From positions 1-43,259 of the forward strand of contig JAYTKZ010000040.1 in the NCBI GenBank assembly GCA_043729885.1: a stretch of DNA of 43,259 nt, given 5' to 3'. The stretch's first letter is position 1, and every line of letters begins with the position of its first letter. The stretch comes from a bacterium. Its GTDB lineage: Bacteria > Patescibacteriota > Gracilibacteria > Absconditabacterales > Absconditicoccaceae. The notes beneath the pieces were generated by a model, which saw only the letters and a list, made by a program, of their open reading frames with translations, did not search any database and was not told the origin of the DNA. The position numbers were made by a program, and so were the translations under genes. Below, one piece after another: positions 366-26,506 of this stretch.

Positions 366-372
366 TTCTTAT

Positions 373-446
373 TAAACAGTTAAACGGTTAAATAGTTAAA
401 CAGTTTATAAATAGTTTATCTGCTTATCTACTTCATCTGTTTATCC
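373..446. repeat. 7/8-nt-period array (TAAACAG-type units) followed by its approximate reverse complement
   Basis: taaacag ttaaacgg ttaaatag ttaaacag ... tagtttatctgcttatctacttcatctgtttatcc. Confidence 0.7.
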
Positions 447-1680: not shown

Positions 1681-1750
1681 GCTGGTAGTTAGCATCTTAT
1701 AACTAACTACTAGCTACTGACTACTAGTTTACTATTCACTATTAACTAAC
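1681..1750. repeat. TAGTNAC-type heptamer array; 1681-1714 folds as a 12-bp hairpin
   Basis: gctggtagttag..ctaactactagc pairing, then ctactgactactagtttactattcactattaactaac running up to the rpsJ start. Confidence 0.65.
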
Positions 1751-1752: not shown

Positions 1753-2073
1753 ATGGCTGAAACAACATCACCAAAGTTAAGAATCAAACTTAAAAGCTAT
1801 GATGTGAAAATGCTTGAAAGCTCAACAAGTAAAATTGTTGGACTTCTTGTAAAGTCATGAGCTACTATGAAAGGTCCAATACCTTTGCCAAAACAAAGGA
1901 AACTATATACAGTTCTCAAATCAAACTTTGTATACAAGAATGCTAGAGAACAATTCGAAAGATCTACATTTGCTAGATTGATTGATGTTGTAGAAACAGG
2001 TCCAAAAACTATTGAATACCTTCAAAATCTCTCTATTCCAGTTGGAGTATCTGTAGAAGTAAAAGTATTCTAA
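1753..2073 (+). CDS. rpsJ: 30S ribosomal protein S10
   Basis: Extends track ORF 1867..2073 upstream through one TGA. VKS-TGA-ATMKGPIPLP aligns with E. coli KRTGAQVRGPIPLP. Confidence 0.93.
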
Positions 2074-2106
2074 TCTCTTTATATTACAATAAGTTTCTTA
2101 CTTGTC

Positions 2107-2712
2107 ATGAAAACGAAAAAATGACTCCTCGTTAAAAAGAAAGAAATGACAAAGCTCTGGGTAAACAATGCTCATACAGCGGTAACGCTTTTGGAAATTG
2201 TTCCACAAGAGGTTGTTAGATACAAAACATCTGAAAAAGATGGTTATGAAGCTGCTATTATTGGAGTTGGGAAAAAAGAACTCAACAAAGAAAAATGACA
2301 TAAAGTTTCATATACTGTTTTACAAGAATTCTGATGTGATGATTCTTTCAAATCAGCATTTCCAGCAGGAACTGTTGTTTCTACAAACCTTCTTGAAGGT
2401 GTACAAACAGTTGATCTTACGGGTGTTTCAAAGGGTAAAGGTTTTGCATGAGTAATGAAGAGATTCAATACAAAGTGAGGACCAAAAACTCATGGTTCTA
2501 AATTCCATAGACATGTTTGATCACTTGGTAATAGAAAACCTAGACGTGTACAAAAAGGTCATCCACATGCTGGTCATATGGGTACTGATACAATTACACT
2601 TCACAACAGACCAATCATAGAAGTTACAACACTTCAAGGAACTCCATTTGTTATAGTAAAATGAGCAGTACCTGGGTCATACAACGGATTCTTATCATTG
2701 TATGTTTCATAG
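2107..2712 (+). CDS. rplC: 50S ribosomal protein L3
   Basis: 201 codons open under code 25. KGKGFA-TGA-VMKRFN matches the conserved KGKGFAG motif. Not in the track because of multiple TGA. Confidence 0.92.
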
Positions 2713-2746
2713 AAACCTTTACGTTATATAATACCATCAAACATAG

Positions 2747-3382
2747 ATGAGTTATAGTATATCAATCCATGATTCAAAAGGAAAAGTCGTAGAAAAGAAA
2801 GCATTAAATGCTGCTATCTTTGCCGACGAAAACATTAACGACTCATTAATTCATGAGTTCTATGTTTTGCAACAAGCAAATGCTCGTATTAATATTGCAC
2901 ATACGAAGACAAGAGGAGAAGTAGCTGGTTCTGGTAGAAAGCTGTACAAACAAAAAGGTACAGGTAATGCGAGAGTTGGTGCTGCTAATTCGCCTATTAG
3001 AAGACACGGATGAGTTGCATTCGGTCCTAGAAATACAACTAACTTCACAAAAGAAATGCCAAAGAAAATGAAGAAATTGGCTCTAGCGTGAATCCTTACT
3101 GTAAAAGCTAGAAACGACCAACTAATCGGTATTATAGACAATGCTCTTGATTCTATTAAAACTAAAGAAGCAATTGCTATGCTTCAAAACATAGGATTAG
3201 CAAACAAGAAAACACTTGTTGTTATACCTGAAAAAAATGAAGTAATTGAAAAATCTTTGAGAAATGTACCTAGAACAAAAATTATTACAGCTATGTATGT
3301 TAACCCAGTAGATCTTCTTCATTATGACAAAGTACTAGTGTTCGCAGGATCACTTGATAAACGAGATATATTATTTGCATAA
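2747..3382 (+). CDS. rplD: 50S ribosomal protein L4
   Basis: Joins track ORFs 2747..3013 and 3179..3382 in frame through TGA. KQKGTGNARVG motif. Confidence 0.92.
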
Positions 3383-3400
3383 AACATACAATATAGCCAC

Positions 3401-3428
3401 CATTTACTAGTCACTATTAACTATTTAC
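3401..3428. repeat. Exact 7-nt-period array ending 1 nt before the rplW ATG
   Basis: catttac tagtcac tattaac tatttac. Confidence 0.75.
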
Positions 3429-3429
3429 T

Positions 3430-3789
3430 ATGGCATACATTGATATCCTTAGACAAAGAGCAAAGAAAACATCTTCGACAAGTGCCTTAAAATCACTTAG
3501 TCCGTATGATATTATTATTGCTCCAGTACTAACAGAAAAAGCATACAAAGCATCAGATTCTGATAAGAAAGATGTTGGAAAACAATATTTTTTCAAAGTA
3601 CATTCAGATGCAAACAAGAATGATATAAAACATGCAATTCTTACAATCTATGGAGTTATTCCAGTAGCTGTAAATCTTCTTTGGGTAAAAGAAAAAGGAA
3701 GAGCTAACAGAAAACTTGTGAGAAAATCATATAAAAAAGCAATCGTTAGTGTTGCTGCATGAAAATCACTTCCTGTATTAGATGTATAA
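3430..3789 (+). CDS. rplW: 50S ribosomal protein L23
   Basis: Track ORF 3430..3762 continues 9 codons past a TGA to TAA. Position in the S10 operon. Confidence 0.88.
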
Positions 3790-3793
3790 TATA

Positions 3794-3825
3794 TAGTGAC
3801 TAGTTACTCATTACTAGTGACTAGA
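3794..3825. repeat. Exact 7-nt-period array
   Basis: tagtgac tagttac tcattac tagtgac tagac. Confidence 0.75.
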
Positions 3826-3861
3826 CAAAAGTATTTTATTTGTTCCTAGGTTCGTACCAAG

Positions 3862-4707
3862 ATGGCAGTGAAAAAATATAAACCATATACACCAGCGAGA
3901 CGTACTATGATATGATACGATTTCTCTGATATTACAAAACATACTCCAGAAAAATCTCTGACAGTTTCTATGAAATCAACTGCTGGAAGAAATCAGTATG
4001 GTAGAGTAACTTCAAGATTCCAATGAGGTTGACACAAAAGAGCATATCGTTTGGTTGACTTTAGAGGATATGATAAATCAAATATCCCAGCTACTGTTAA
4101 AGCTATTGAGTATGATCCATACAGAACAGTGAGAATTGGTCTTGTATCATACGCTGACGGTGAAAAAAGATATGTACTTGCTTGGAAGAATATCAAAGTT
4201 TGAGATACTTTCATGACTGGGGAACAAGCACAACTTACTCCAGGAAATAGAAAACAACTCAAGGATATTCCAGAAGGGTTCAATATATTTAATCTTGAAT
4301 ACACTCCTTTTACAAAAGGGAAAACTATCAAGACAGCTGGATCATTTGGTGTAGTAACAGGTAAAGATGAAGCTCTTCATACTGTATTTGTTAAATTACC
4401 ATCATGAGAAGTTAGAAAGTTTGATGAGAAATGTTTTGCTACTATAGGTCAACTTGGTAACGAAGATCATAAAAATATTGTTCTTGGTAAAGCAGGTAGA
4501 GCTAGATGGATGGGTAAAAAAGGTCGTGTACTCGGTAAGTCAATGAACCCAGTGGATCATCCACATGGTTGATGAGAATGACATGCTGAAATTGGTCTTA
4601 GATTCCCTAAATCATTTAGTGGTAAACCAGTTCCTCCAGGAAAGAAAACAAGAAAAACAAAGAAATGGTCAACTAAATTCATCGTATCTAGAAGAACAAA
4701 AAATTAA
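3862..4707 (+). CDS. rplB: 50S ribosomal protein L2
   Basis: 281 codons. HPHG-TGA-TGA-E-TGA-H at 4561-4584 equals the universal HPHGGGEG motif. Confidence 0.95.
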
Positions 4708-4742
4708 TATATTCTTATTTACTATTTATTGTCACCTTAATT

Positions 4743-5000
4743 ATGACAAGATCACTCAAGAAAGGATTCTATGTGAATGAAAGACTCCTTAAAAAAGTAG
4801 AAAAAATGACTACTGCAGGAGAAAAGAAAGTAATCAAAGTATGGGACAGAGCATGTCAAATTACCCCTGAAATGATTGGTTTCACATTTGCAGTTCACAA
4901 CGGAAAACAATTTGTGAGTTTATATATCAATGAAGAAATGATTTGACATAGACTTGGAGAGTTCGTTGCAACAAGAACATTCAAATGACATCCATTCTAG
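4743..5000 (+). CDS. rpsS: 30S ribosomal protein S19
   Basis: Track ORF 4743..4946 extended through 2 TGA. EMI-TGA-HRLGEF matches EMVGHKLGEF. Confidence 0.93.
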
Positions 5001-5030
5001 TGAATTTTAATTACTATTGTATGCTATCCA

Positions 5031-5369
5031 ATGCAAAATAATCTTAGTGCGACACTAAACTACGCACTCACATCGTACAAAAAAATGCAACTTATTGCAA
5101 AGCTCGTAACGGGTAAGAAGGTTGATGATGCGCTCAATATACTTGAGCATACACAAAAATCTGCTGCAAAGATGTTGTGGAAAGTAGTTAAATCTGCGCA
5201 AGCAAATGCTACTCACAATGCTGGTCAAGATGTAAACACATTGTTTATTGATCATATATTAGTAGGGAGATGACCAAAAATCAAAAGAATGAGATTTGCG
5301 TCAAGATCTAGAATGCATGGTTATCTTAAACACAGATCATATGTAAAAGTTGTTTTAAATAGTAAATAG
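5031..5369 (+). CDS. rplV: 50S ribosomal protein L22
   Basis: Track ORF 5031..5273 extended through TGA to TAG. Operon position. Confidence 0.9.
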
Positions 5370-5379
5370 TCTAAACACT

Positions 5380-6078
5380 ATGGGACAAAAAGCAGATCCG
5401 AGAGGACTGAGAGTTGGTGTGACGAAGTCACGATCATCTGAATGGTTTGCAAAAACTAAACGTCAGTGAGCGCAATTTTTCGTACAAGATATTAAAGTAA
5501 GAAACTTCGTTGAAGATTCTTATAAAAGATCTGGTATTGCTAAAATAGTTATCAGACAGACAGATAAAGAATGTGAAATCATCATATTCACTGCAAAGCC
5601 AGCACTAATCTTAGGAAAAGAGGGGAAAAAACTTGAAGAGTTCCAAGCAAAACTTGTAAAAAAGTTTGGTGGAGAGTTCAAAGTTGTTCTCAAAGATGTT
5701 AGACTTCCAGAACTTTCAGCTAAAATAATGGGTGAATACGCTGCGTCTCAATTAGAAGCTCGTATGCCATTTAGAAGAGTTGCTAAAACAATCCTTCAAA
5801 AAGTAATGGAAAAATGAGCTATTGGTGTGAAAATTCAAGTATCAGGAAGACTTGGTGGGGTTGATCTATCAAGAAGTGAAAAATTCTCTCAAGGAAGAGT
5901 ATCGCTTCAAACACTTAGATCAGATATTGACTACCATGTAACTACTGCTCTTACTAAATATTGAATCTTGGGTATCAAAATATGGATTTCAAGATGAGAT
6001 ATTATCACAAAGATTGCTCCAAAAACAACACCTGCTGATGAGAAAAAAGTAGCTATGCAAAAGATATTAGCAAAATAA
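5380..6078 (+). CDS. rpsC: 30S ribosomal protein S3
   Basis: [14 protein letters not shown]-terminus and GRLGG motif; 232 codons open under code 25. Confidence 0.93.
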
Positions 6079-6116
6079 TTAAATAATATATTTTAACCAT
6101 ATAAAGTATAGTAGAT

Positions 6117-6539
6117 ATGTCGTTACTGACGCCAAAAAGATGGAAATATCGTAAACAAATGAGATCAAGAATTACTGGTGCCGCTACAAGAGGTAATCAG
6201 GTATCTTTTGGTGAATTTGGTCTAAAAGCTCTAACAAGCTCTTACGTAACAAATAGACAACTCGAAGCTGCTAGAAAAGTAATCGTAAGATATACTAGAA
6301 AAGTAGGTAAGATGTGGATTAGAGTATTCCCTGATGTTCCATACACAAAAAAGTGATTGGAAATGCCGATGGGTACTGGTAAGGGTGAAGTAGCATTCTA
6401 CCAAGCAAGAGTTAAAAAATGAGGTGTCTTGTTTGAAGTAAGTGGACTAGATAGAGCAACTGCTGTTGAAGCGTTCTCTATGGCTGGATACAAACTTCCA
6501 ATGAAAGTTAAAATCGTAGAAAAAGGAGAAATTAAATAA
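6117..6539 (+). CDS. rplP: 50S ribosomal protein L16
   Basis: Track ORF 6117..6356 extended through 2 TGA. PKRWKYRK and MGTGKG motifs. Confidence 0.93.
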
Positions 6540-6567
6540 TATTTATATTGGTGTAACACTACTCACA

Positions 6568-6777
6568 ATGTCGACTAAAAAATTACCTTTCGTAGATGTA
6601 GCAGAAAAATCTCTCAAAGAGCTTATATGACTTCGTCGTAATCTCAAAAAAGAACTTTTTGATGCTCGCATGAAAAATGCTCTCAAATCTTTGAAAGAAA
6701 CACATACTATATCAGTATTGAGAAAAAATATTGCGAGAATCAATACTGCTTTAACTTCTAAAAATACTAACCACTAA
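6568..6777 (+). CDS. rpmC: 50S ribosomal protein L29
   Basis: 69 codons, helical basic protein between L16 and S17, one in-frame TGA. Confidence 0.8.
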
Positions 6778-7040
6778 TGGCTGTATTGAATTGAAAAAAT
6801 CTCAAAGAAGTAGTTGGAACTGTATCTAGTGATAAGATGGATAAAACCATTGTAGTTACTGTGAAATCAGTGAAACAACATCCTTTGTATAGAAAGAGAT
6901 ATACAACAAAGAAAAAATATTATGCTCATGATGAAGCAAATAATGCTCATACTGGTGATGTTGTAAAAATCAGACTTGCTAACCCAACTAGTAAAACAAA
7001 AAGATGGGCGCTTGTTGAAGTAGTACAAACAGCAGCATAA
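6777..7040 (+). CDS. rpsQ: 30S ribosomal protein S17
   Basis: ATG overlaps the rpmC TAA by 1 nt. VVGTVSSDKMDKTIVV motif. Extends track ORF 6837..7040. Confidence 0.9.
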
Positions 7041-7050
7041 TAATAAGGTA

Positions 7051-7135
7051 CTCAGTAGTTAGTAGTCAGTAGATATTTGTTGTATGCAAATATGATACCT
7101 ATTTACTAAATACTAACTGCTAGCTACTAACTACT
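7051..7135. repeat. Inverted pair of TAGTNAG heptamer arrays around an AT-rich core
   Basis: Left arm ctcagtagttagtagtcagtag; right arm ctaactgctagctactaactact is its approximate reverse complement. Confidence 0.75.
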
Positions 7136-7163
7136 ATATTTATATATTGTATTCCATAGTACC

Positions 7164-7532
7164 ATGTTACAAAATGAATCGGGAGTAATCGTTGCTGATA
7201 ATACTGGAGCCAAAAGCTGACAGATTATCAGAATCCTAAAAGGTTCAACTGCCAAAAAAGCAACAGTTGGAGATAGGGTTGTGATTGCTATCAAAAGTGT
7301 ATCTACTACATCTGTATATAAAAAATGAGATGTTGCTAGAGCTGTAATTGTAAGAACTAAAAAAGGTGTTTGAAGAAAAGATGGTTCTTATCTTAAATTC
7401 GCAGACAATGCAGTTGCAATTATCAACAAAGAAAATGAACCAGTTGGTAAAAGAATATTTGGACCTGTAGCTAGAGAACTAAGAGATGTAGGTTTCAAAG
7501 ATATTGCAACACTTGCTGAAGAAGTTATTTAA
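7164..7532 (+). CDS. rplN: 50S ribosomal protein L14
   Basis: [15 protein letters not shown]-terminus; 122 codons with 3 in-frame TGA. Confidence 0.93.
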
Positions 7533-7551
7533 TCTTTCACACTTTCAATAT

Positions 7552-7839
7552 ATGAAAAAATTGAAACAAGGCGACCCAGTAAAAGTAATTGCTGGTAAGT
7601 TCAAAGGGAAAACATCAAAGATTATTTCTGTTGATGGTGATCTCGTTGTTGTTGATGGAATTAATGTGATGAAAAAAGCAGTTAAGTGAAAAGGGTTTGT
7701 TGATAAAATCAAACCAATACACATATCAAATATAATGTATCACGATGAAAAAGCTGGTATATCAAAGATATGAATCGCTACTGATGCTGCTGGAAAAAAA
7801 TCACGTATTCTAAAAAAGACACAAAAAGCTATTGCATAA
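7552..7839 (+). CDS. rplX: 50S ribosomal protein L24
   Basis: Internal ATG of track ORF 7504..7689, chosen because rplN ends at 7532. KQGDPVKVIAGKFKGK KOW motif. Extended through TGA. Confidence 0.88.
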
Positions 7840-7866
7840 TTATTTATCCTATTTGTACTGTGCACC

Positions 7867-8406
7867 ATGAGTTTACACGCACAATTCCATAAAACTACAA
7901 AACCCGCACTCCAAAAAACGCTTGGGAAAAAAAATATTCATCAAGTACCAGCTGTTGATAAAGTTATTGTGAGTGTAGGTATATGATCTCTTGCTACAAG
8001 AAAGTGAGTGAAAGATTTCTCAGATATTGAAAAGAATCTTATTAAGATTACTGGTCAAAAACCAACTCTTCTCAAATCTAAGAAAGCAATCTCAAACTTT
8101 AAATTGAGAGAAGATATGCCGGTTATGTATAAGGTTACTCTCAGAAGAGATAAAGCTCTAGAGTTCTTAAACAAACTTACAACAATTGTTCTCCCAAGAG
8201 TGAGAGACTTCGTTGGATTAAATCCTAAAAGTTTTGATCCAAATTCGAATATCAATATTGGATTACAAACACAAGCTATCTTTCCAGAGCTTATGACAGA
8301 TGACGCAGGTGCTTCTATGGGTGTGCAAATCACAATCGTGACTCACGCTTCAGATAAAAAAGATGCACAAGCACTTCTTGAAAAACTTGGATTCATATTC
8401 ATATAA
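7867..8406 (+). CDS. rplE: 50S ribosomal protein L5
   Basis: Extends track ORF 8008..8406 upstream through TGA codons. QVPAVDKVIVSVGIG motif. Confidence 0.92.
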
Positions 8407-8436
8407 TATATTTATTCTTCGTTATATACTAGTTAC

Positions 8437-8661
8437 ATGGCTAGAAATGCACTCAAAGTAAAGCAGGCAAAATTAGAACGTAAGAAGTTCGATGCTCTTG
8501 CACAATGAAAAAAAATGGACAAGGCTACTAGATTCTACAATAGATGCAAACTCTGTGGTAGACAAGCAAGTTTCATAAGAGACTTTGGTATCTGTAGAGT
8601 ATGTCTTAGAAAGTACGCAAGAGAATGACTTATTACTGGTCTAAAGAAAGCAAGCCGATAA
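8437..8661 (+). CDS. rpsN: 30S ribosomal protein S14 (zinc-binding type Z)
   Basis: 74 codons with CKLCGR..CRVCLR paired Cys motifs. Operon position. Confidence 0.88.
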
Positions 8662-8688
8662 CATTTTATCTTATATTTTTCCACCGAA

Positions 8689-9093
8689 ATGAGCTTTGTG
8701 AATGCTCCTATCCACGACCTTCTCATTAGAATTAAAAACGCATATATGGCGAGAAGAAATACGCTTGACTGAATTGTATATTCTACATTCAAAGTAAGTG
8801 TATTAGAACTTCTTAAATCATATGGGTTTATTCTATCATACGAGATAGTTGAACAAGGACCTAAAAAAACATTAGTAGTTCACCTCAAAGATGTTAAAGA
8901 CGAGGTTAACGATATTCCTGTAATCAAATTCTATTCTAGACCATCAAGACGTTGGTATATTTCTTACAAAGAAATTAAGCCAGTAGCTGCGGGTAGAGGT
9001 ATTTGAATTTTGTCTACTTCACAATGACTTTTGCCTACGCATATTGCGAAACAAAAGAAAATTGGTGGTGAACTTATTGCAGAAATTTATTAG
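8689..9093 (+). CDS. rpsH: 30S ribosomal protein S8
   Basis: [12 protein letters not shown] motif; 134 codons open under code 25. Confidence 0.92.
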
Positions 9094-9118
9094 TTTATTT
9101 GTTGTTACGTATCTATCC

Positions 9119-9664
9119 ATGTCTAAGATTGGAAAAAAACCTATAGCATTACCAAATGGTGTTACAGTTACTGTTGATAATTCAGTAGTATCTGTTAAAG
9201 GATCAAAAGGGACGCTTTCATACAAAATGTTACAATGAGTAACTGCAACTGTTGAAGAAAATACAGTTACGGTAGCTATTGATACAGATGAAAAGAAAAA
9301 CCTTTGGGGACTTACAAGAACACTTATTCAAAATATGGTAGTAGGAGTATCTGAATGATATACTATAAAACTTCATGTTTTATGAGTTTGATTCACAGCT
9401 AAAGCTGCTGGGGAAAAACTTGTATTAGCATTAGGGTTTTCTCATCCAGTGAACTATCAATTACCAAAAGGTATTGCTGTAACTCTAGAAAAAGATGTTA
9501 AAGGTAATGATATCATTATTTTGACATGAATAGATAAGCAACTAATCGGAGAAACTGCTGCACAAATTAGAAAACTTAAAAAACCAGAACCATACAAAGG
9601 GAAAGGTATTAGATATATTGATGAAAAGATTAAACTTAAAGCTGGTAAAGCTGCTAAGAAATAA
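9119..9664 (+). CDS. rplF: 50S ribosomal protein L6
   Basis: [16 protein letters not shown]-terminus (internal ATG of track ORF 9044..9238), extended through several TGA. Confidence 0.92.
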
Positions 9665-9665
9665 T

Positions 9666-9758
9666 AAGTAGTCAGTAGTTAGTAGTCAGTAGCTAGTTGT
9701 TATATAAAAATATAATACCTATATACTAACTACTAACTGCTAACTGCTAGCTACTAAT
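9666..9758. repeat. Inverted pair of TAGTNAG heptamer arrays around an AT-rich core containing tataat
   Basis: aagtagtcagtagttagtagtcagtagctagttg ... ctaactactaactgctaactgctagctactaat. Confidence 0.8.
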
Positions 9759-9780
9759 TTATATTCCATTGTATTAACCA

Positions 9781-10134
9781 ATGAAAGCAAAGAAAACTCT
9801 TTATAGCAAAGCACAAAGACTTCTAAGAAGAAAAAATAAAGTTAACACAGTCATCAAAGCGACTGCGTCACTTCCTAGATTAATTGTACGAAAATCTAAT
9901 CTTTATACATCAGCTCAAGTAATTGACGCTACTGGTAAAGTTGTAGCTTTTGCAAACGACAAGAAAGAAAAAGGTACTAAGACTGAAAAAGCTCTTGCTG
10001 TAGGTAAATCTATTGCAACTCTTGCTAAAAAAGCTGGTATCGATGCTGTAGTATTTGATAGAAATGGATATCATTACCACGGTAGAATCAAAGCTATTAG
10101 TGAGTGAGCTCGTGAAGGAGGATTACAAAATTAA
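9781..10134 (+). CDS. rplR: 50S ribosomal protein L18
   Basis: Track ORF 9781..10107 extended through TGA. FDRNGYHYHGRIKA motif. Confidence 0.92.
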
Positions 10135-10136
10135 AT

Positions 10137-10200
10137 AGATAAACAGTTAAACGGGCAAACAGTTAAAAGATTATCTGTTTAACTACTTAACTACTTAACC
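10137..10200. repeat. Inverted pair of TAAACAG-type arrays
   Basis: agataaacagttaaacgggcaaacagttaaaag / atctgtttaactacttaactacttaacc. Confidence 0.7.
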
Positions 10201-10229
10201 TATATATTTATTATTATTTGTTTGTCTTA

Positions 10230-10883
10230 ATGACTACACCAGAAAAAGTAAAAACATCAAAGCCAAAGAAAGAGTTTGAAGAACTCCTATTGGAAGTAAG
10301 AAGAGTTACCAGAGTTAATACTTGAGGTAGACAATTATCTTTCAGAGCAATTATTCTTGTTGGTAATAAAAACGGGAAAATTGGATTAGGTGTTTCTAAA
10401 GGGTGAGATGTACAAATCGCTGTTAGAAAAGCAACTAATGAAGCATATAAAAATATGAAAGTAATTCCTATTACTGAATGAGGGACTATTCCTTATGAAA
10501 CAACATTCAAGTATAAGGCAGCTATCATTAAAATGCTTCCTGCTTCAACTGGTACTGGTCTAAAGGCTGGTTCTGCATTGCGTTCTGTTTTGGAACTTGC
10601 TGGATATACAAATATTCTTTCGAAAATTATGGGTACAAATAATAAATTAAATAATGCTCTTGCTACTATTATGGCACTCAGTACATTTAAAGTAGATAGA
10701 TCTAAATTGGGAACTATCAATCTTCAAGAAGTAATGGATATCAGAAAGAAAGATCAAGCGCAAGCTGAAGCTGAAAGAGCTGCTAAAAATGATAGAAAAC
10801 CAAGAAGAAATAATGATCAAGCTTGAGCTGGTGGTGGTAAACCATGAGCAGGATGAGGAAGAAGACCAGCACCTAAGAAATAG
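10230..10883 (+). CDS. rpsE: 30S ribosomal protein S5 with a Lys/Arg/Gly-rich C-terminal extension
   Basis: Extends track ORF 10533..10826 both ways through TGA. VTRVNT-TGA-GRQLSFRA motif. Confidence 0.9.
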
Positions 10884-10886
10884 TTA

Positions 10887-10964
10887 AGAGACCGGTCTCT
10901 TTGTAACCGGAAATAAAATACTAATATGATGACTATCTCATAATTATTTATGAGACCGGTCTCA
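10887..10964. repeat. Two copies of the perfect palindrome GAGACCGGTCTC, centres 63 bp apart
   Basis: aagagaccggtctctt at 10887-10902 and tgagaccggtctca at 10951-10964, in the rpsE-rplO spacer. Confidence 0.85.
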
Positions 10965-10991
10965 TCAAGTTTACCCTTTCTATCTAAAACA

Positions 10992-11444
10992 ATGTTCGGA
11001 TATCAACTCGTTAAAACACCATGATACAAAAAACCTCGTATTCAAAGAGGAAGAGGTGACTCTTCTGGTAGAGGTAATACTTCTGGTAGAGGTAATAAAG
11101 GTGAAGGTGCTAGAGCAGGTGCTTCAGTACATCCTAATTTTGAAGGTGGACAAACTCCATTGGTACAAAGATTGCCTAAATTAAGAGGTTTCAAAAGACA
11201 TTTCAAATTGGTAAATAAATTCCAAGCAGTAAATGTTGGATCACTTGATAAAGATGTTCGTGTAGAAAATGGTTCAACTATTACTACTGAACAATTAGTA
11301 ATTCGAGGATATGCGGGAAAAAATGACTCAGTTAAAATTCTTGGTAATGGAGAATTATCAAAAAAACTTACATTCTCTGGTATTACTGCATTTACAGTAT
11401 CTGCAAAAGAAAAAATTGCAGCCGTATGAGGATCAATTGCATAA
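10992..11444 (+). CDS. rplO: 50S ribosomal protein L15
   Basis: Extends track ORF 11160..11429. GRGNKGEGARAG and FEGGQTPL motifs. Confidence 0.92.
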
Positions 11445-11450: not shown

Positions 11451-11482
11451 TTACTAGTGACTAAATAACTAGTGACTAGTAT
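11451..11482. repeat. TAGTGAC-type heptamer array
   Basis: ttactagtgactaaataactagtgactagtat. Confidence 0.6.
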
Positions 11483-12840: not shown

Positions 12841-12896
12841 AGCTACGCTCTAGAAATAAGAGAAAAGAAATATGATATAAGAGCATATATTTCAAT

Positions 12897-12922
12897 GTCA
12901 TCCCGGGCTTGACCCGGGATCT
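12897..12922 (+). repeat. REP-like hairpin element (GTCATyCyG family)
   Basis: gtcatcccgggcttgacccgggatct; near-identical core at 35092-35116. Confidence 0.75.
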
Positions 12923-12924
12923 AA

Positions 12925-12951
12925 AAGAAGACTTAATTGTCTTCTTTTTTT
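12925..12951 (+). terminator. Rho-independent terminator after secY
   Basis: aagaagac-ttaatt-gtcttctt followed by a T run. Confidence 0.8.
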
Positions 12952-13031: not shown

Positions 13032-13697
13032 ATGATACTTACAGACAAACAAATTCTTCAGAGGATGAAGAAAGGAACTATTAAAATAGTACCTTTTAAT
13101 CCTAAAGCATTGGGCCCAAATAGCTATGATGTATGTTTGGGTGATACATTAGCGGTATATAAGAATAAGAAACTTGACGCTGCTAAACACAACAAAATCA
13201 AAAGCTTCAAAATCCCCAAGAAAGGATATATGTTGAAAAAAGGAACATTTTACTTGGGTGTTACAAAAGAATACACAGAAACCCATTGTGCAGTGCCATT
13301 CTTGGATGGCAAAAGTAGTATCGGCCGTTTGGGGATCAAGATTCACCTGACAGCTGGAAAGGGTGATGTTGCATTCTGTGGTAACTGGACATTGGAAATT
13401 GAAGTAGCACAGGATGTGAGAGTATATGCGGGTATGGCTATTGGCCAGTTGTTTTATTTACCTATTACTGGTAAAGTAAACAATCCTTATGACAAAAAGA
13501 AAGACGCAAAATACTCTCATCAGGCAGCCGTTCCAGTTGAATCTATGATGTGGAAAAATAAGTTCTTTGAAGAGATGAGACAGCCCCGTGCAAAAAAATC
13601 AGGAAAGGGTAAAAAGAAATCTATAAAAGATATGTCTCTACTTGAAATAGATACTATAGAAACGAAGCACCCACCCTTAATTGGAAATAAAAAATAA
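13032..13697 (+). CDS. dcd: dCTP deaminase family protein with a Lys-rich C-terminal tail
   Basis: Intact 221-aa track ORF with GPNSYDVCLG, GKSSIGRLG and GNWTLEI motifs. No TGA; visibly higher GC than its neighbours. Confidence 0.85.
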   Translation: MILTDKQILQRMKKGTIKIVPFNPKALGPNSYDVCLGDTLAVYKNKKLDAAKHNKIKSFKIPKKGYMLKKGTFYLGVTKEYTETHCAVPFLDGKSSIGRLGIKIHLTAGKGDVAFCGNWTLEIEVAQDVRVYAGMAIGQLFYLPITGKVNNPYDKKKDAKYSHQAAVPVESMMWKNKFFEEMRQPRAKKSGKGKKKSIKDMSLLEIDTIETKHPPLIGNKK

Positions 13698-13711: not shown

Positions 13712-13743
13712 AGCTGTCCGGTTTTTTGCCGGCAGCTTTTTTT
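13712..13743 (+). terminator. GC-rich rho-independent terminator
   Basis: agctg(t)ccgg-ttttttg-ccggcagct followed by ttttttt. Confidence 0.8.
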
Positions 13744-13744
13744 A

Positions 13745-13857
13745 GATTATAGGAAATTTGAAAAGAGCTATTGTGCTATAATCCTTCAAGCATCTTCACT
13801 TCAGCATTCTTCTTTGCAAAAATGCAATAAGAAATGCTTCGTTCAGAAGCTTTTTTT
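13745..13857 (+). ncRNA. Candidate small RNA, or conserved promoter-to-terminator module, copy A
   Basis: Extended -10 tgcTATAAT at 13774-13782; hairpin gcattcttctttgca/tgcaataagaaatgc; terminator gcttc-gttca-gaagc plus T7. Collinear with 37877-37989. Confidence 0.4.
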
Positions 13858-13860
13858 AAT

Positions 13861-13886
13861 CCCTAATCCCCAGTCCCTAGTCCCTG
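13861..13886. repeat. AGGGACT-type heptamer array overlapping the methyltransferase stop codon
   Basis: ccctaatccccagtccctagtccctg. Confidence 0.75.
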
Positions 13887-14644: not shown

Positions 14645-14686
14645 TTAGGGACTAAGGATAAGGGACTGGGGCTAGTTGCTAGTTAC
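14645..14686. repeat. AGGGACT/TAGTTRC heptamer array, inverted relative to 13861-13886
   Basis: ttagggac taaggat aagggac tggggc tagttgc tagttac. Confidence 0.75.
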
Positions 14687-14807
14687 ATATATAATATATC
14701 AAAAGTCTAGTAGTAATAAGGGATTTTAGTGTGTTATCATTCCGTTATTTTGTCATCATCATCATTATAACTATAATAATAGTATCTACATACTATATAT
14801 TTTTCAC

Positions 14808-15398
14808 ATGGATACAAAACAAAAAAAAGTAAATCATGCTCATATTGAAGAAATACTCTTAAGAGAGAAAGAAGAATTATCTAGTATTTTTGAAGCAATT
14901 AGAGAAAGAGAAACTCTTGCTGAAAATGTAAATGATTCATATGATGAAAACCTTACATTCCCACAACGCGTTGCTGATAAAATGGCTGATTTCGGTGGTT
15001 CATGGGCATTTATCCTTACTTTTTTGGGAATACTTGTTTGATGGATGATATTAAATATTATTTTGGCTAGTAAAGCATTTGATCCATATCCTTTCATACT
15101 ACTCAATCTTGCTCTTTCATCACTGGCAGCACTCCAATGACCAGTAATTATGATGAGTCAAAAACGCCAAGAAGTGCGTGATAGATTGCGTGCAGAAAAT
15201 GATTATAAGGTTAATTTGAAAGCTGAAGTAGAAATCCGTTCTCTTCACGATAAACTTGATCACTTGATTGTAAATAAGTGGGATCATCTTATTGAAATTC
15301 AACAAATTCAATTGGAGATTTTGGAAGGTAAAAGAACAACTCCTAAAAAACCTAAAAAAACTATAAAAGAAGTAAGTTCAGATAATACACAAATCTAG
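14808..15398 (+). CDS. DUF1003 family membrane protein
   Basis: Joins track ORFs 14808..15041 and 15150..15398 through 2 TGA. GGSWAFI, FDPYPFILLNL and IMMSQKRQ motifs. Confidence 0.85.
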
Positions 15399-15423
15399 TC
15401 ACTAGTTATTAGTCATTAGTAAC
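15396..15423. repeat. Exact heptamer array whose first unit contains the stop codon
   Basis: TAGtcac tagttat tagtcat tagtaac. Confidence 0.8.
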
Positions 15424-16691: not shown

Positions 16692-16697
16692 CCTCTC

Positions 16698-16738
16698 GTC
16701 ATCCTGACACTGAGTTTATCGAAGTGGAAGGATCTCGT
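16698..16738 (+). repeat. REP-like element
   Basis: gtcatcctgacactgagtttatcgaagtggaaggatctcgt; nearly the same as 24946-24986. Confidence 0.8.
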
Positions 16739-16777
16739 GAATAAATATCATAATTTATATCTCCACAATCTTACACC

Positions 16778-17049: not shown

Positions 17050-17214
17050 ATGGCAAGACTTACAACCCAAGCTAAAAGAAAACTACACAAGGCTCTTGTG
17101 AGAGTTGAAAAAGTAGTAATGATGGATACGAGAAAAAACCTTGAACAACAAAAGAAGTGGAAAGCGAAAGTGATGAACTCTAGAAACAAGAAACAATCAA
17201 CAGTGATTGCATAA
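17050..17214 (+). CDS. Hypothetical small highly basic protein (54 aa)
   Basis: MARLTTQAKRKLHK..., Lys/Arg-rich, lies between rpsG and rplS. No family recognised. Confidence 0.45.
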   Translation: MARLTTQAKRKLHKALVRVEKVVMMDTRKNLEQQKKWKAKVMNSRNKKQSTVIA

Positions 17215-18512: not shown

Positions 18513-18514
18513 AA

Positions 18515-18589
18515 GGAATCATGGATTAGGTATTAAGTATTAGTAACAATTATCATATTGCTAATACTTAGTACCTAGTTCTGAATTCC
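18515..18589. repeat. Long imperfect hairpin built from GTATTAG-type heptamers
   Basis: ggaatcatggattaggtattaagtattagtaac versus the reverse complement of attgctaatacttagtacctagttctgaattcc. Confidence 0.75.
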
Positions 18590-18596
18590 TGTTCTT

Positions 18597-18665
18597 GGGT
18601 CGGTAGCTCAGCTCGGTTGGTACCGAGTAAAGGGTAGAGCAGTTGGTGTTTACCAACCTGGTCGA
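18597..18665 (+). pseudogene. 5' fragment of a tRNA (acceptor, D arm with a 14-nt insertion, anticodon arm), truncated in the T stem
   Basis: gggtcggtagctcag..gagc, then gttgg-tgtttac-ccaac and ctggtcga; after that, unrelated sequence. Confidence 0.6.
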
Positions 18666-18700
18666 TAGAATATACTGAGAATAAAGTTAATAATTCCTAT

Positions 18701-18772
18701 GGGTCGGTAGCTCAGGGGTAGAGCAATGGCCTTTTAAGCCACTGGTCGAGGGTTCGAGACCCTCCCGACCCA
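18701..18772 (+). tRNA. tRNA-Lys (anticodon TTT), CCA not encoded
   Basis: Acceptor gggtcgg/ccgaccc, anticodon loop ctTTTaa, T arm gaggg-ttcgaga-ccctc. Confidence 0.88.
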
Positions 18773-18779
18773 AAAAAAG

Positions 18780-18805
18780 TCTCAGTCTTCGGATTGGGAT
18801 TTTTT
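18780..18805 (+). terminator. UUCG-tetraloop hairpin plus T run
   Basis: tctcagtc-ttcg-gattggga followed by tttttt; duplicated at 19178-19204. Confidence 0.7.
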
Positions 18806-18872
18806 CATTGTTTATTCTTTGTGATATATGATAATATTTTTATAATTCACTATTTATAAATTATAATCATCC

Positions 18873-19124
18873 ATGTATCAGTGATATTGTGTCTACCTAC
18901 TTACATGAACAAGAAATTACGTATGAAGTACTAATAACCTAGAAAGAAGACTAATAGAACATACTAGATGAGAATATTCAACTAAAAGGATATGAACTCG
19001 AAAGTTAACATGATATATCCCATGTGATACATTATTGATAGCAAGAAGATTAGAAAAGAAAATTAAACAACTGTGACATTATCAAATTACTATGTTGAAT
19101 CTATGAATGGTTGTGGGAGAGTAA
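18873..19124 (+). CDS. Small GIY-YIG nuclease-domain protein (83 aa)
   Basis: Code 25 gives M-Y-Q-G-YCVYLLTGTRNYVGSTNNLERRLIEH...ARRLEKKIKQ, i.e. GIY, YIG, RR..EH and E..IK motifs. 9 of 83 codons are TGA, so it is invisible in the track. Confidence 0.75.
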
Positions 19125-19170
19125 GTCGGTTAAACCGACCTGGTCGAAGGTTCGAGACCCTCCCGACCCA
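19125..19170 (+). pseudogene. 3' fragment of a tRNA (anticodon-arm-like hairpin, T arm, 3' acceptor strand)
   Basis: gtcggttaaaccgac ctggtc gaagg-ttcgaga-ccctc ccgaccc a. Direct repeat of 18742-18772. Confidence 0.65.
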
Positions 19171-19177
19171 AAAAAAG

Positions 19178-19204
19178 TCTCAATCTTCGGATTGGGGTTT
19201 TTTT
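19178..19204 (+). terminator. Second copy of the UUCG-tetraloop terminator
   Basis: tctcaatc-ttcg-gattgggg followed by a T run. Confidence 0.7.
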
Positions 19205-19311
19205 ATTGTTAGAATAGTCTATTGAGTATATACTCTTCCCCCTTGCTATTGCATATTTTAAGCATAGGCTATTTTTATAGGGAATATCTTTATCCCATTA
19301 CCTTACTTATT

Positions 19312-19461: not shown

Positions 19462-19646
19462 TACATTTATAACTATTGTAATCTCTTGCAATTATTTGTG
19501 TTTTTTCTATACTTCAAACATCAGAAAGTCTTCTCAACGCCTTGTAGAGGAGATTTTTTGTATAATAAAAAATGTTACAAAATAAGAATGAAATCGTATA
19601 CTATATAGTATAGTACAAATATATACTAATAGTAAAATTCTACACT

Positions 19647-19667
19647 CTTAATTTTTAATTCTTAATT
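19647..19667. repeat. Heptamer array
   Basis: cttaatt tttaatt cttaatt. Confidence 0.6.
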
Positions 19668-20434: not shown

Positions 20435-22234
20435 TTATTGTTTTGTGTAATCAACTTCGCAATCTGTGGTTTCTTGTTCATCATTACTACTTGTGTCAAC
20501 TTCTTCTTCTTCAAATACCAATTGTTTGTTCCACATTTCTGCGTATAAACCATTGGATGAAATCAATTCATGATGTTTGCCTTGTTCGATAATCTTACCA
20601 TTTTCCAATACAATAATTCTATCCATATTAGCTACGGTAGATAACCTATGTGCTATGCAAATCAAGGTATCATTGCTTTGGAGGAGTTCTTTCATCGCAA
20701 ACTGAATTTTTGTTTCAGACAAACTATCAAGAGAACTTGTTGCCTCATCCATAATAATAATAGGTCGCTTTGCAAGAAATGCACGAGCTATAGCAACTCT
20801 TTGGCGTTGTCCACCAGAAAGCTTTACCCCTCTTTCTCCGACTTTTGTATCATACTCTTTGGAGAGTTTGATAATAAAATCATGAGCTTGCGCTTTTTTT
20901 GCAGCTTCAGTAATTTCTTCATTAGTAGCATCAGGTCTTGCATAAGCAATGTTTTCTTTGATTGATCTATGAAATAACAAAGCTTCTTGTTGAACAGTCG
21001 CAATAGTAGATCGTAAACTACGAATAGAATACTCCCTAATATCATAATTGTTCAATGTTACACTTCCGCTATTTATATCCATTTCACGAAGAATAAGTTT
21101 TACTAATGTGGATTTCCCACTTCCTGATTCTCCAACAATACCAACTTTTTCTCCCTTCTTAATATGAAGATTAAAATTGTTAAATACTGGCTCATAAACA
21201 TCATATCCAAAGGTCATATTATTGAATACTATATCACCATTTTCTATACATACGATGTTACCATTGTCTTGTACAGTAGGTTGAGTTTTTAGTATTTCAA
21301 TCATTTCTTCACCATCAGTTATCAATTGAGTAATATTTTTTATTACATTACCAATGTTTGATAACTTGCTGGCAATAACTGTTGTATAACCAACAACCAG
21401 AATTACATCACCAAGAGTAAATAACTTTTGATCCCATAAATATGCTGTTGTTAGTATACTACTTACAACCATAATTAAATAGAATAAGTCGTTTACGCGC
21501 CATTGGATGTATCCTTTTCCCCATGCAGTTCTTCTATAATCAGACCTTGTTTTATTGATTTGAGTGAATCGATTTTTTTCTTCTTCGATTTTCCCAAATG
21601 CGTGAATAGTACTAATATTGCTCAATTGATCAGATATTAGTGCTGTCACTTTTGAGTCTGTATTTGATACTTTCTCGTTAAATGGATGTTGCCATCTAGA
21701 AAATCTATATGTCATATATCCAAATAATAAACCAATAATCAACATTCCTAAGCCAAATAGAGGCATTTTAATAAACAGTACTGTTATAATTGATACAAAA
21801 AGTGTAACACTTGGTATCAAATTAAAGAAAAGTTCATCATAAATTCTTTCGTAGCAACGAGTGAATTTATTGTGTTTTCCCACAAGAGCACCAATTGAAT
21901 GATTCTTGAAATAATCAATTGAAAGATCCAATAAATGGTGAGCAGTGTGATCTGCTATTCTGTGCATCGTTTTCTGTTCTACTACTACAAGTAACCAGTT
22001 TCCTATAGCCCAAACAATAGTTCTGACTATAAGGTACGCTAGATATGTTAATACAATCGCCAATATAATACTATACGGTGTTTGTAATGACATTTTGTTC
22101 GTAAAATCTGCAAAATATATTGGTGCAATAATATCACCAATAATAGGCGAGATAATGGAAATAATGATAGATAACCAAAACGCTTTTGCGTATGGTTTCT
22201 GTAATTTACTAAAAATGATAAAGACCTTTTTCAT
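20435..22234 (-). CDS. ABC transporter, fused permease/ATPase (MsbA/ABCB-type exporter)
   Basis: Intact 599-aa track ORF with Walker A GESGSGKST, signature LSGGQRQR and Walker B IIIMDEATS. Zero TGA. Confidence 0.93.
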   Translation of the reverse strand: MKKVFIIFSKLQKPYAKAFWLSIIISIISPIIGDIIAPIYFADFTNKMSLQTPYSIILAIVLTYLAYLIVRTIVWAIGNWLLVVVEQKTMHRIADHTAHHLLDLSIDYFKNHSIGALVGKHNKFTRCYERIYDELFFNLIPSVTLFVSIITVLFIKMPLFGLGMLIIGLLFGYMTYRFSRWQHPFNEKVSNTDSKVTALISDQLSNISTIHAFGKIEEEKNRFTQINKTRSDYRRTAWGKGYIQWRVNDLFYLIMVVSSILTTAYLWDQKLFTLGDVILVVGYTTVIASKLSNIGNVIKNITQLITDGEEMIEILKTQPTVQDNGNIVCIENGDIVFNNMTFGYDVYEPVFNNFNLHIKKGEKVGIVGESGSGKSTLVKLILREMDINSGSVTLNNYDIREYSIRSLRSTIATVQQEALLFHRSIKENIAYARPDATNEEITEAAKKAQAHDFIIKLSKEYDTKVGERGVKLSGGQRQRVAIARAFLAKRPIIIMDEATSSLDSLSETKIQFAMKELLQSNDTLICIAHRLSTVANMDRIIVLENGKIIEQGKHHELISSNGLYAEMWNKQLVFEEEEVDTSSNDEQETTDCEVDYTKQ

Positions 22235-24908: not shown

Positions 24909-24945
24909 GATGATAGTTATGAGTAGTTAAAGATTTTTTATTCTC

Positions 24946-24986
24946 GTCATTCTGACACTGAGAGAATCGAAGTGGAAGAATCTCGT
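24946..24986 (+). repeat. REP-like element
   Basis: gtcattctgacactgagagaatcgaagtggaagaatctcgt. Confidence 0.8.
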
Positions 24987-25003
24987 CAAACAACTATTTA
25001 TTC

Positions 25004-26471: not shown

Positions 26472-26506
26472 TAGGGATTAGGGACAAGGGATTTGGGATT
26501 AGTTGT
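26472..26506. repeat. TAGGGAT-type heptamer array
   Basis: tagggat tagggac aagggat ttgggat tagttgt. Confidence 0.8.

Follow-up and report, generated by a model that had tools for sequence, protein, structure and literature searches.

Period-7 repeat arrays in the ribosomal-protein spacers of an Absconditabacteria (SR1)-like genome are related to known heptameric tandem repeats

Why is the untranslated gap between two ribosomal-protein genes filled by a seven-letter word, repeated head to tail and then repeated again as its complement? The question is raised by positions 9666-9758 of contig JAYTKZ010000040.1 from a bacterium of the Absconditicoccaceae, a stretch of 43,259 nt that was analysed as a whole and is here called the window. 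At this site, the rplF/rplR spacer reads (TAGTCAG/TAGTTAG/TAGCTAG)n, an AT-rich core and (CTAACTA/CTAACTG/CTAGCTA)n. A preliminary description, made from the letters of the window, had regarded such arrays as a repeat type with a constant period and a locus-specific unit, for which no described class was known. The analysis reported here leads to a different answer. The arrays are a new lineage of a described, functionally unexplained repeat class and not a new kind of element; most likely, they arise by slippage and copy-paste and are tolerated only where the DNA is untranslated. Arms richer in G than in C are called G-type, and those richer in C than in G, C-type. The focal element and its closest relative in the window are laid out as follows.

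9666-9699, plus strand: 5' arm of the focal hairpin, G-type, TAGTCAG TAGTTAG TAGTCAG TAGCTAG; begins 2 nt past the rplF double stop TAATAA
9700-9723, plus strand: AT-rich core of the focal hairpin, with a small inner stem TGTTATAT/ATATAATA and no promoter match
9724-9758, plus strand: 3' arm of the focal hairpin, C-type, CTAACTA CTAACTG CTAACTG CTAGCTA CTAA; followed by the conserved 24-nt rplR leader ATTTATATTCCATTGTATTAACCA
7048-7136, plus strand: palindrome of about 90 nt in the rpsQ/rplN spacer, a paralogue of the focal element

The period of seven is a property of the untranslated DNA. Intergenic autocorrelation reached 0.343 at lag 7 and 0.339 at lag 14, compared with 0.297 in dinucleotide shuffles (z = 7.7 and 7.6), bearing out the predicted lag-7 excess; coding DNA displayed no lag-7 peak (0.278), only a lag-3 series. 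Twelve intergenic period-7 arrays were observed against 0.17 in shuffles, together with 10 of period 14, and every other period from 3 to 15 yielded at most two each. Inside coding sequences (CDS) only four period-7 arrays were present in 34 kb. Our own scan detected 18 period-7 arrays in the whole window, and Tandem Repeats Finder reported period 7 with 3.1-4.9 copies at 16 loci (starting at 1702, 3402, 3794, 7048, 7104, 9667, 9724, 11453, 13857, 15396, 19646, 26472, 34726, 36877, 38718 and 39016) and period 8 at four places. Two loci of the preliminary list of at least 16, at 373 and 10137, have period 8. A further member, at 18515, was missed by both programs, yet three imperfect ATTAGGT-like units are visible there. 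Most of the listed arrays are indeed intergenic; those at 34727 and 38717, and also the one at 39016, lie inside real CDS. As 9.5 kb of the genome outside the window contained only one heptad array, the arrays are concentrated in the ribosomal-protein cluster and do not occur in every spacer. Independent ENA and Logan assemblies, made from different samples, contain most of these spacers letter for letter, excluding the assembly artefact that would have undone the observation.

The left and right arrays of one spacer had been proposed to pair into long hairpins, and folding agrees with this. As RNA, the focal spacer (9665-9780) folds at -38.4 kcal/mol (z = -5.8; none of 200 shuffles was as good), 7041-7163 at -32.6 kcal/mol, and the spacer 18513-18699 at -67.5 kcal/mol, with a near-perfect stem at about 18514-18590. 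An ungapped alignment of 7048-7136 with 9668-9756 shows 87% identity across 89 nt, loop included. Owing to their heptad period, these paralogues adopt different pairing registers, with copy A retaining 32 of 35 pairs in the register of copy B. When folded as single-stranded DNA, the focal hairpin has little stability (-15.2 kcal/mol, z = -2.4, minimum-free-energy (MFE) frequency 0.02). A TATAAT-like box had been described in the AT-rich core; the core and a TATAAT hexamer in the loop are present, but they constitute no sigma-70-type promoter match.

The units are a few dispersed families and are not locus-specific. TAGTNAG/CTAACTR units recur at at least seven loci, GGGAYTA at five and TTAAACAG at two. 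Besides the 87% identical palindromes, the TTAAACAG arrays at 373-400 and 10140-10167 are 89% identical and the arrays at 1728-1748 and 3403-3423 are 95% identical, and these paralogues at separate spacers refute the notion of a unit private to each locus.

The host genome has a GC content of about 32% and reads TGA as sense: open reading frames (ORFs) of at least 100 aa amount to 20.3 kb under translation table 11 and to 64.2 kb with TGA read through. The window encodes tRNAs, tuf, the S10/spc ribosomal-protein cluster (1753-11444), secY, other genes and the start of a 23S rRNA. Its nearest species representative is a metagenome-assembled genome of the Absconditabacteria (SR1), with an RplF identity of only 61%. 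Conspecific contigs (98.8-100% identity) were retrieved via two UGA-free genes, tuf and a dCTP-deaminase-like gene, and are present in several ENA and Logan assemblies. Comparison of orthologous spacers, as had been suggested, revealed that arrays are gained, lost or replaced by strain or relative (compared loci carry L numbers). The rpsQ/rplN array has exactly one extra CTAGCTA unit in L091 and L093 (130 vs 123 nt); L094 has the same single-nucleotide polymorphisms without the extra unit, and L085 has a net gain of 7 nt in the tuf/rpsJ spacer. Whole modules differ as well. L086, with 92% RplF identity and flanks of about 94% nucleotide identity, has a bare 31-nt rpsQ/rplN spacer (TTATTATTTATATATTGTATTTCATTGTACC), in comparison to which the window carries about 92 nt inserted directly past the stop codon, the leader being intact. 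The rplF/rplR spacer of L086 measures 55 nt, of which only the last 24 nt, the rplR leader, are in common with the window. No target-site duplication was recognisable at either insertion when filled and empty sites (window and L086) were compared. In L091, L093 and L094 an unrelated 110-nt spacer with ACCGGT-type GCGACCGGTCGC...GCAACCGGTCAC palindromes replaces the focal hairpin. With L091 matching the window at 98.8% identity overall, this shows that the focal hairpin is dispensable, and a hairpin of this kind is probably dispensable at any single locus. More distant relatives carry a period-8-armed hairpin at the focal site (78% RplF identity) or GAGACCGGTCTC palindromes in several spacers (75%). 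The focal feature is young and dispensable, in a spacer prone to be occupied by one palindrome or another.

The position of an array relative to gene ends requires the remaining arrays of the window, which are given here in order.

372-445, plus strand: tRNA-Ile/tuf spacer; period-8 inverted pair, TTAAACAG x4 (372-405) and TTATCTGC-like units (416-445)
1681-1748, plus strand: tuf/rpsJ spacer; a short arm of G-type, GCTGGTAGTTAGC, then two C-type arrays, the arm 1702-1727 and 1728-1748, the latter ending 4 nt ahead of the rpsJ ATG
3394-3431, plus strand: single C-type array, ACTAGTC ACTATTA ACTATTT ACT; abuts the rplW start codon
3794-3824, plus strand: single G-type array, TAGTGAC TAGTTAC TCATTAC TAGTGAC TAG; 4 nt past the rplW stop
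10132-10199, plus strand: rplR/rpsE spacer; period-8 inverted pair, TAAACAGT-type units, then TTAACTAC x2.6
11451-11480, plus strand: single G-type array, ACTAGTG-type; directly past the rplO stop
13857-13885, minus strand: GGGAYTA-type array, G-rich on the sense (minus) strand; overlaps the stop of a methyltransferase gene; canonical G-quadruplex (G4) motif
14645-14690, plus strand: GGGAC-type array between divergent genes; immediately before the start of a minus-strand gene, on whose sense strand it is C-type; 1-nt difference between strains
15395-15420, plus strand: single G-type array, CTAGTCA CTAGTTA TTAGTCA TTAGT; contains the stop codon of a DUF1003 gene
18514-18590, plus strand: long near-perfect hairpin past rpmB; roughly heptad arms ATTAGGT ATTAAGT ATTAGTA
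19646-19667, plus strand: CTTAATT-type array; 12 nt ahead of the start of a rhomboid gene
26472-26502, plus strand: GGGAT-type array; canonical G4 on the plus strand, C-type on the sense (minus) strand, 6 nt before the start of an amidase gene
34720-34749, plus strand: TTCGTAA-type array inside a Mur-ligase gene (minus strand); orientation without TAA/TAG on the sense strand
36877-36906, minus strand: GGGACTA-type array, G-rich on the sense (minus) strand; 17 nt past the stop of the upstream minus-strand gene
38718-38743, plus strand: AGGGAAT/AGGGACT array inside a glycosyltransferase gene (minus strand); canonical G4 on the antisense strand
39016-39045: further array inside the same glycosyltransferase gene

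Cataloguing the arrays in this way, another of the earlier suggestions, gave a rule: G-type arrays follow stop codons and C-type arrays precede start codons. On the sense strand of co-directional spacers, stop-proximal arrays are G>C in 5 of 5 cases and start-proximal arrays C>G in 7 of 7. Arrays beside minus-strand genes obey the same rule, those at 13857 and 36877 being G-rich past stops and those at 14645 and 26472 C-rich before starts, again on the sense strand. By inspection, all 10 of the 10 single arms fit, and the G...C configuration is constant. The polarity of whole hairpins relative to transcription was considered and discarded, as an inverted repeat is the same on both strands and only single arms and the configuration are informative. 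C-type arrays end 0-27 nt ahead of start codons. A Shine-Dalgarno (SD)-like motif, searched from -20 to -4, was found in 0 of 48 window genes, the leaders of which contain 7% G. Across Candidate Phyla Radiation (CPR) genomes, the type of the start-proximal arm equals the general G-C skew of leaders, taken from array-free genes, in 7 of 8 cases. Leader composition as the cause of the polarity therefore fits these genomes; it fails for the CAGTAGT family described below, whose leaders are not C-biased, yet whose arms are oriented 34:0. The arrays lie almost only in untranslated DNA, or inside ORFs in a stop-free orientation.

All three canonical G4 motifs of the window (criterion G3N1-7 x4, four G-tracts each) are heptad arrays (13861-13884, 26474-26497 and 38719-38742), and ViennaRNA with its G-quadruplex option predicts a quadruplex at each of them in silico. 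A quadruplex role, whether in DNA or in RNA, may be considered for the GGGAYTA family only.

Two further exclusions of the preliminary description stand. The arrays are not of the CRISPR kind, which has repeats of 23-50 nt with unique spacers of similar length, compared with contiguous units of 7-8 nt here. Nor are they canonical terminators: a terminator scan of the window called no heptad hairpin, the stems have no T run after them and also lie inside operons, and ordinary T-run terminators are located elsewhere in the window (12923, 13718, 13836 and 18774). Promoter-like sites were not enriched in the window (81 found vs 89 expected), no -35/-10 match was seen in the loops, and a promoter in the hairpin loop was rejected as no sigma-70-type match is present. 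Rfam 15 gave no match reaching the gathering score, only sub-threshold hits to eukaryotic microRNA (miRNA)-precursor models, which are generic long hairpins.

Other repeats share the spacers of this genome. A second dispersed hairpin, GTCATYCTGA...CGAAG..GAATCTC, is found at 16694-16741, 24942-24989, 26505-26540, 35090-35150 and 12895-12925; the copies 16694-16741 and 24942-24989 are 88% identical, related copies are present in L087, and the sequence is unrelated to the heptad arrays. Palindromes of the GAGACCGGTCTC/GCGACCGGTCGC type are a third spacer occupant, often paired into long hairpins (window 10888-10900; L087 3119-3244 and 9309-9430; L091 6643-6730; L219 50-75 and 4965-4980).

Tandem heptanucleotide repeats have been known since 1990, and the units of the cyanobacterial short tandemly repeated repetitive (STRR) sequences, present in Calothrix and Nostoc, include CCCCAGT. 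In the window, 13861-13885 holds CCCCAGT/CCCTAGT units. The earlier statement that no such described class was known is contradicted by accounts of tandem intergenic heptanucleotide repeats (MacGregor 2015 and Rehm 2015, both citing Mrazek 2007). As reported in later papers, Mrazek 2007 found heptamers to be the most abundant or over-represented class of long simple sequence repeats (LSSRs; cited in PMC4679880, PMC4692102), suggested that a DNA polymerase contact of about 7 nt favours slippage (via PMC4679880), and located long repeat runs mostly in large, GC-rich genomes (via Rehm, PMC4692102). The window arrays resemble LSSRs and STRRs in their head-to-tail 7-nt units of 3-5 copies, mostly intergenic and at many loci, in the few recurring units, in whole-unit copy-number variation between strains and in a period of 7 that is set apart from other periods. 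They differ in their host, a UGA-recoded CPR bacterium of about 32% GC, and in that most of them are paired into hairpins. Among the papers listed by a literature search of limited coverage, none joined heptamer repeats with CPR bacteria.

Two published families are close. The units GGGAATC in Xanthomonas and GGGGA(C/T)T in Nostoc prefer four copies and form G4 in vitro; each Xanthomonas genome contains 70-75 convergent inverted pairs able to form stem-loops, and these heptamers are transcribed, vary in length between relatives, show no association with mobile elements and have no explained function (Rehm 2015, PMC4692102). For Nostoc, a preprint puts forward the speculation that start-proximal heptamers have a regulatory role in transcription or translation, and that they enhance the latter. 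The GGGAYTA unit of the window is nearly the same, with four G-tracts and the same stop/start polarity, and the window likewise has convergent inverted pairs able to form stem-loops. Its G-rich family, however, is single-armed, pairing being confined to arrays of the TAGTNAG family, which is not of the G4 kind. Xanthomonas also uses SD sites, whereas the window genome shows none. The second family, TAACTGA, is known from intergenic DNA of Beggiatoaceae, Cyanobacteria and Bacteroidetes, where it mostly precedes start codons by a few nt and lies inside ribosomal-protein operons, in spacers without a ribosome-binding site (RBS); it contains stops in the forward orientation, is tolerated inside ORFs in the stop-free one, differs by 7-nt indels between strains, and repeat-free relatives have shorter spacers (MacGregor 2015, PMC4679880). 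The C-type units TAACTGC/TAACTAC of the window are one base off, and they too lie near starts, in ribosomal-protein operons and without an RBS; a stop-free orientation is tolerated in ORFs, 7-nt indels occur, and the spacers of array-free relatives are shorter. Exact TAACTGA tandems are absent from the window, in which TAACTGATAACTGA and its complement have 0 occurrences. For BOGUAY, 169 direct repeat sets and only one indirect repeat were reported (PMC4679880), unlike the window, where inverted pairing prevails.

Further kinds of element were compared. Like repetitive extragenic palindromic (REP) sequences, REP doublets forming hairpins (REPINs) and the miniature transposable elements with inverted repeats known as MITEs, the palindromes of the window are imperfect, about 90 nt long and dispersed, have paralogous copies, are present or absent by strain and are placed past stops. 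Within the 43 kb of the window and 9.5 kb of further genome, the REPIN-like features are the hairpin architecture and the two 87% identical copies. Unlike those elements, the arms are internally 7-nt tandem, no target-site duplication was seen, and no REP-associated tyrosine transposase (RAYT) or other transposase is found among the window ORFs. The heptad operators of the ribbon-helix-helix protein omega (pSM19035) are WATCACW arrays, one sequence bound by one protein at few promoters. They share with the window 7-bp units in direct and inverted arrays, but in the window several unit families are spread over many spacers and no candidate protein is apparent. On these grounds, several unrelated unit families and no candidate protein in the window, both omega-type operators and HutP-type UAG-N4 sites were set aside.

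Period-7 arrays are not restricted to this genome, as a survey of intergenic DNA in further loci revealed.

SR1 loci: 21 period-7 arrays observed, about 2 expected from shuffles
Other CPR loci: 51 observed, about 1 expected
Non-CPR loci, mostly Bacteroidota: 18 observed, about 1 expected

Other periods reached at most 18 in the other CPR loci, compared with the 51 of period 7, and at most 5 in the remaining groups; period 8 was second in CPR. Loci of Saccharibacteria, Paceibacterota and Moraniibacteriota have their own unit families, with inverted pairs abutting stop and start codons. In the sister clade of oral and animal-associated SR1, a conserved hairpin with the heptad arms ACGAATT ACGAATT / ATTCGTA ATTGGTA ATTTGTA occupies the rpsJ/rplC spacer (L005, 3045-3134; L006, L007, L010, L012, L014, L019, L020 and L026). 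G.U pairs make it far more stable in the sense RNA (-20 to -23 kcal/mol) than in the antisense RNA (-6 to -13 kcal/mol), and for the S10 operon it is a candidate cis-regulatory RNA. Covariation was uninformative, the sequences being too invariant (88% mean column identity).

More than 120 JGI metagenome contigs, whose GC content ranges from 0.32 to 0.70, contain the exact 20-mer CAGTAGTTAGTAGTCAGTAG of the focal arm. Among 80 (CAGTAGT)n loci fetched, a complementary (CTACTRA)n arm was present within 300 nt downstream in 34 and upstream in none, and the G-type arm abuts the neighbouring gene irrespective of gene strand. In 387 kb of these metagenome loci, 233 period-7 arrays were counted, compared with at most 34 at any other period. 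Another cosmopolitan unit family is TTCGTAA/ATTCGTA, noted as short arrays in Flavobacteriia, where they lie just upstream of rplF, as well as in Gracilibacteria, in SR1 and on a metagenome contig unrelated to these (L034 1851-1866; L035 9976-9991; L037 9975-9990; L058 9267-9282; L140; window 34726-34749). The record L037, labelled Glaciecola amylolytica, has spacers near-identical to the Fluviicola/Flavobacteriales loci L021 and L035 and is probably mislabelled or contaminated.

Taken together, we think it probable that the arrays represent the STRR/heptameric LSSR class in an Absconditabacteria (SR1)-like genome, shaped by slippage, module copying and confinement to untranslated DNA and forming a putative intercistronic hairpin. 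Their length changes by whole units between strains, as slipped-strand mispairing would have it, and modules of about 90 nt (G-type array, AT-rich core, complementary C-type array) have been copied between spacers. The arrays are probably transcribed, since their spacers lie inside the ribosomal-protein operon. Paired arrays could then fold into an imperfect hairpin of about 30 bp, in several registers, that spans the region from the stop codon to the leader. Any effect would most likely be exerted as intercistronic mRNA structure, by blocking 3' exonucleases, by offering an RNase III site or by sequestering the leader. In the last case, the G-poor leader arm would be freed when the upstream ribosome opens the stem, and downstream translation would depend on that ribosome. 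The hairpin appears to be neither a terminator nor a promoter.

Several observations weigh against this account. The window hairpins are near-equal on both strands (-38.4/-35.0, -32.6/-30.8 and -23.0/-22.5 kcal/mol), and the general sense-strand folding bias is equal in spacers with and without arrays; hence there is no RNA-specific signature in the window. As such a signature, sense and antisense folding energies are uninformative for the window and informative only for the rpsJ/rplC hairpin of oral SR1. The element is lost in strains and thus not needed, which suits a neutral or selfish role as well as a modulatory one, and, the element being dispensable, a neutral or selfish account comes close to the one favoured here. 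The orientation rule of (CAGTAGT)n is DNA-symmetric (34:0 among 80 loci) and leaders in those contigs are not C-biased, pointing away from a leader constraint and towards a cause that is intrinsic or lies at the level of DNA. Moreover, slippage alone explains neither the period of 7 nor unit families that recur in unrelated phyla at GC 0.32-0.70. Finally, transcription, processing and any translational effect of the arrays are what we infer from sequence.

Could the palindromic modules instead be mobile elements of the MITE or REPIN type, with the heptads as terminal inverted repeats or transposase sites, moved by a transposase encoded elsewhere? This is possible, if on the unlikely side, and it overlaps with the repeat-class explanation rather than excluding it. 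The two 87% identical copies, loop included, lie in unrelated spacers, the comparison with L086 shows a clean presence and absence with insertion directly past the stop codon, a conspecific strain has a different palindrome at the focal site, and the convergent configuration of the arms is fixed (34:0), as it would be for terminal repeats. Neither insertion, however, has a target-site duplication, no transposase or RAYT was seen in the window, many arrays are single-armed, and in other organisms the same arms flank wholly different cores, GC-rich hairpins included; the heptamers of Rehm 2015 lack an association with mobile elements (PMC4692102). A role of the arrays as RNA-level protein-binding sites for SD-independent initiation or its regulation, with the complementary arm as an anti-leader, is doubtful. 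MacGregor named ribosomal protein S1, cold-shock proteins and CsrA-like proteins as candidates for binding heptads (PMC4679880). The distance of C-type arrays from starts (0-27 nt), the lack of SD-like motifs in window genes, the concentration in the ribosomal-protein cluster, as in Beggiatoaceae (PMC4679880), and the translation enhancement by start-proximal heptamers about which the Nostoc preprint speculates would fit such a role, and array density falls with SD usage over 72 phylogenetically non-independent loci (Spearman -0.32, p = 0.007), with 0 arrays in the 7 loci of at least 70% SD usage. It sits poorly with the same genes being free of arrays in close relatives and strains, with half of the arrays being G-type and past stop codons, and with several unrelated unit families in one small genome, and no heptad-binding protein is known in any organism.

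Non-B structures at the DNA level (G-quadruplex or i-motif, cruciform, slipped hairpins) that affect transcription, replication or genome stability are improbable as the explanation. That every canonical G4 motif of a 32%-GC window is a heptad array with four G-tracts, that the Rehm heptamers prefer four units and form G4 in vitro (PMC4692102), and that the placement rule is strand-symmetric and independent of the orientation of neighbouring genes speak for it. Yet the dominant TAGTNAG/CTAACTR and TTAAACAG families are unable to form G4, the focal hairpin is weak as single-stranded DNA, and the structures are predicted ones. It is very unlikely that the arrays are three-frame stop cassettes that catch read-through or frameshifted ribosomes where the UGA stop was lost. 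Every unit family of the window contains TAG or TAA, and because 7 = 1 mod 3, one such codon per unit gives a stop in every frame, a property shared by TAACTGA (PMC4679880); arrays also begin at or overlap a real stop codon. Three sense-frame stops were found in 7 of 12 arrays, compared with 4.0 +/- 1.4 for arrays of shuffled units, but the antisense strand has them in 9 of 12, and a sense-strand function of this kind was therefore rejected. In addition, stop-proximal arrays in other CPR genomes are stop-free (AAATCTC, AAATACC), periods of 4, 5 and 10 would serve equally and yet are unused, and AT-rich spacers are already rich in stops. Scarcely credible is a lineage-specific terminator or promoter module at operon junctions: the tuf/rpsJ and rpsQ/rplN hairpins do sit where the S10 and spc operons of Escherichia coli start, and a TATAAT hexamer lies in the loop, but T runs follow no stem and are found with canonical terminators at other sites, neither -35/-10 matches in loops nor promoter enrichment were seen, hairpins are also internal to operons (rplF/rplR, rplR/rpsE), and relatives of the same gene order lack them.

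Some features of the window were noted beside the arrays. Throughout 1-43259 TGA is read as sense (code 25 or 4), with up to 80 TGA codons per gene; tuf, the dCTP-deaminase-like gene (13032-13697), an ABC transporter gene (20435-22234), rpmB and the ORFs 17050-17214 and 37519-37824 are TGA-free, which could reflect high expression or recent acquisition. The rpsE-rplO interval (10884-10949) has no rpmD (L30), as is usual for CPR bacteria. Under naive longest-ORF calling, rplX and rplE are masked by a longer spurious antisense ORF. Downstream of the hairpin at 18514-18590, the 3' half of tRNA-Lys and its terminator are duplicated (18742-18812 and 19140-19210, 94% identical), with a small GIY-YIG-like ORF (18873-19124) between the copies and a tRNA-like pseudo-copy upstream of the tRNA. 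This region (18590-19210) has a 104-nt tandem duplication in L091 and an assembly gap in L090, and has the appearance of a tRNA gene hit by a mobile insertion. A repeat unit of about 106 nt occurs at 13738-13858 and 37871-37990 (84% identical), with a partial third copy at 40056-40076. One copy has its own promoter, of the TTGAAA-N17-TATAAT-like form. The unit further has a T-run terminator (GCTTCGTTCAGAAGCTTTTTTT), adjoins other terminators, matched no Rfam family and could be a small RNA gene family. Finally, 844 nt without an ORF (35075-35918) are locally GC-rich and strongly structured (MFE -187 kcal/mol); no Rfam family above threshold and no ARAGORN match was obtained for them.

In bacteria, the function of heptamers, their 7-nt period and their recurrence in unrelated phyla are unexplained. 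What is added here is a dense set of such repeats in an ultra-small, UGA-recoded, SD-free CPR genome and in several other CPR phyla, their turnover among strains of about 99% identity by unit gain, whole-module insertion or palindrome replacement, and one unit family with a strict orientation rule (34:0) across environmental metagenomes. In practical terms, the arrays lengthen the spacers of ribosomal-protein operons, may contribute to breaks and gaps in metagenome assemblies and are open to misreading as terminators, small RNAs or miRNA-like hairpins. It would be a long shot that the heptads are a cross-phylum cis-element read by a conserved machine, such as the replisome in the case of DNA or, for mRNA, S1 or a cold-shock protein; the idea is kept because of the 34:0 configuration of (CAGTAGT)n, the recurrence at GC 0.32-0.70 and the sense-specific hairpin of oral SR1. 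If it were true, a convergent pair would be a register-sliding hairpin that couples an upstream stop and a downstream start without SD. Genomes of about 1 Mb are typical for this lineage. With so small a genome and few nucleic-acid-binding proteins, the search for a reader, if there is any, is tractable, and the tiny CPR proteome would be the best place to identify it.

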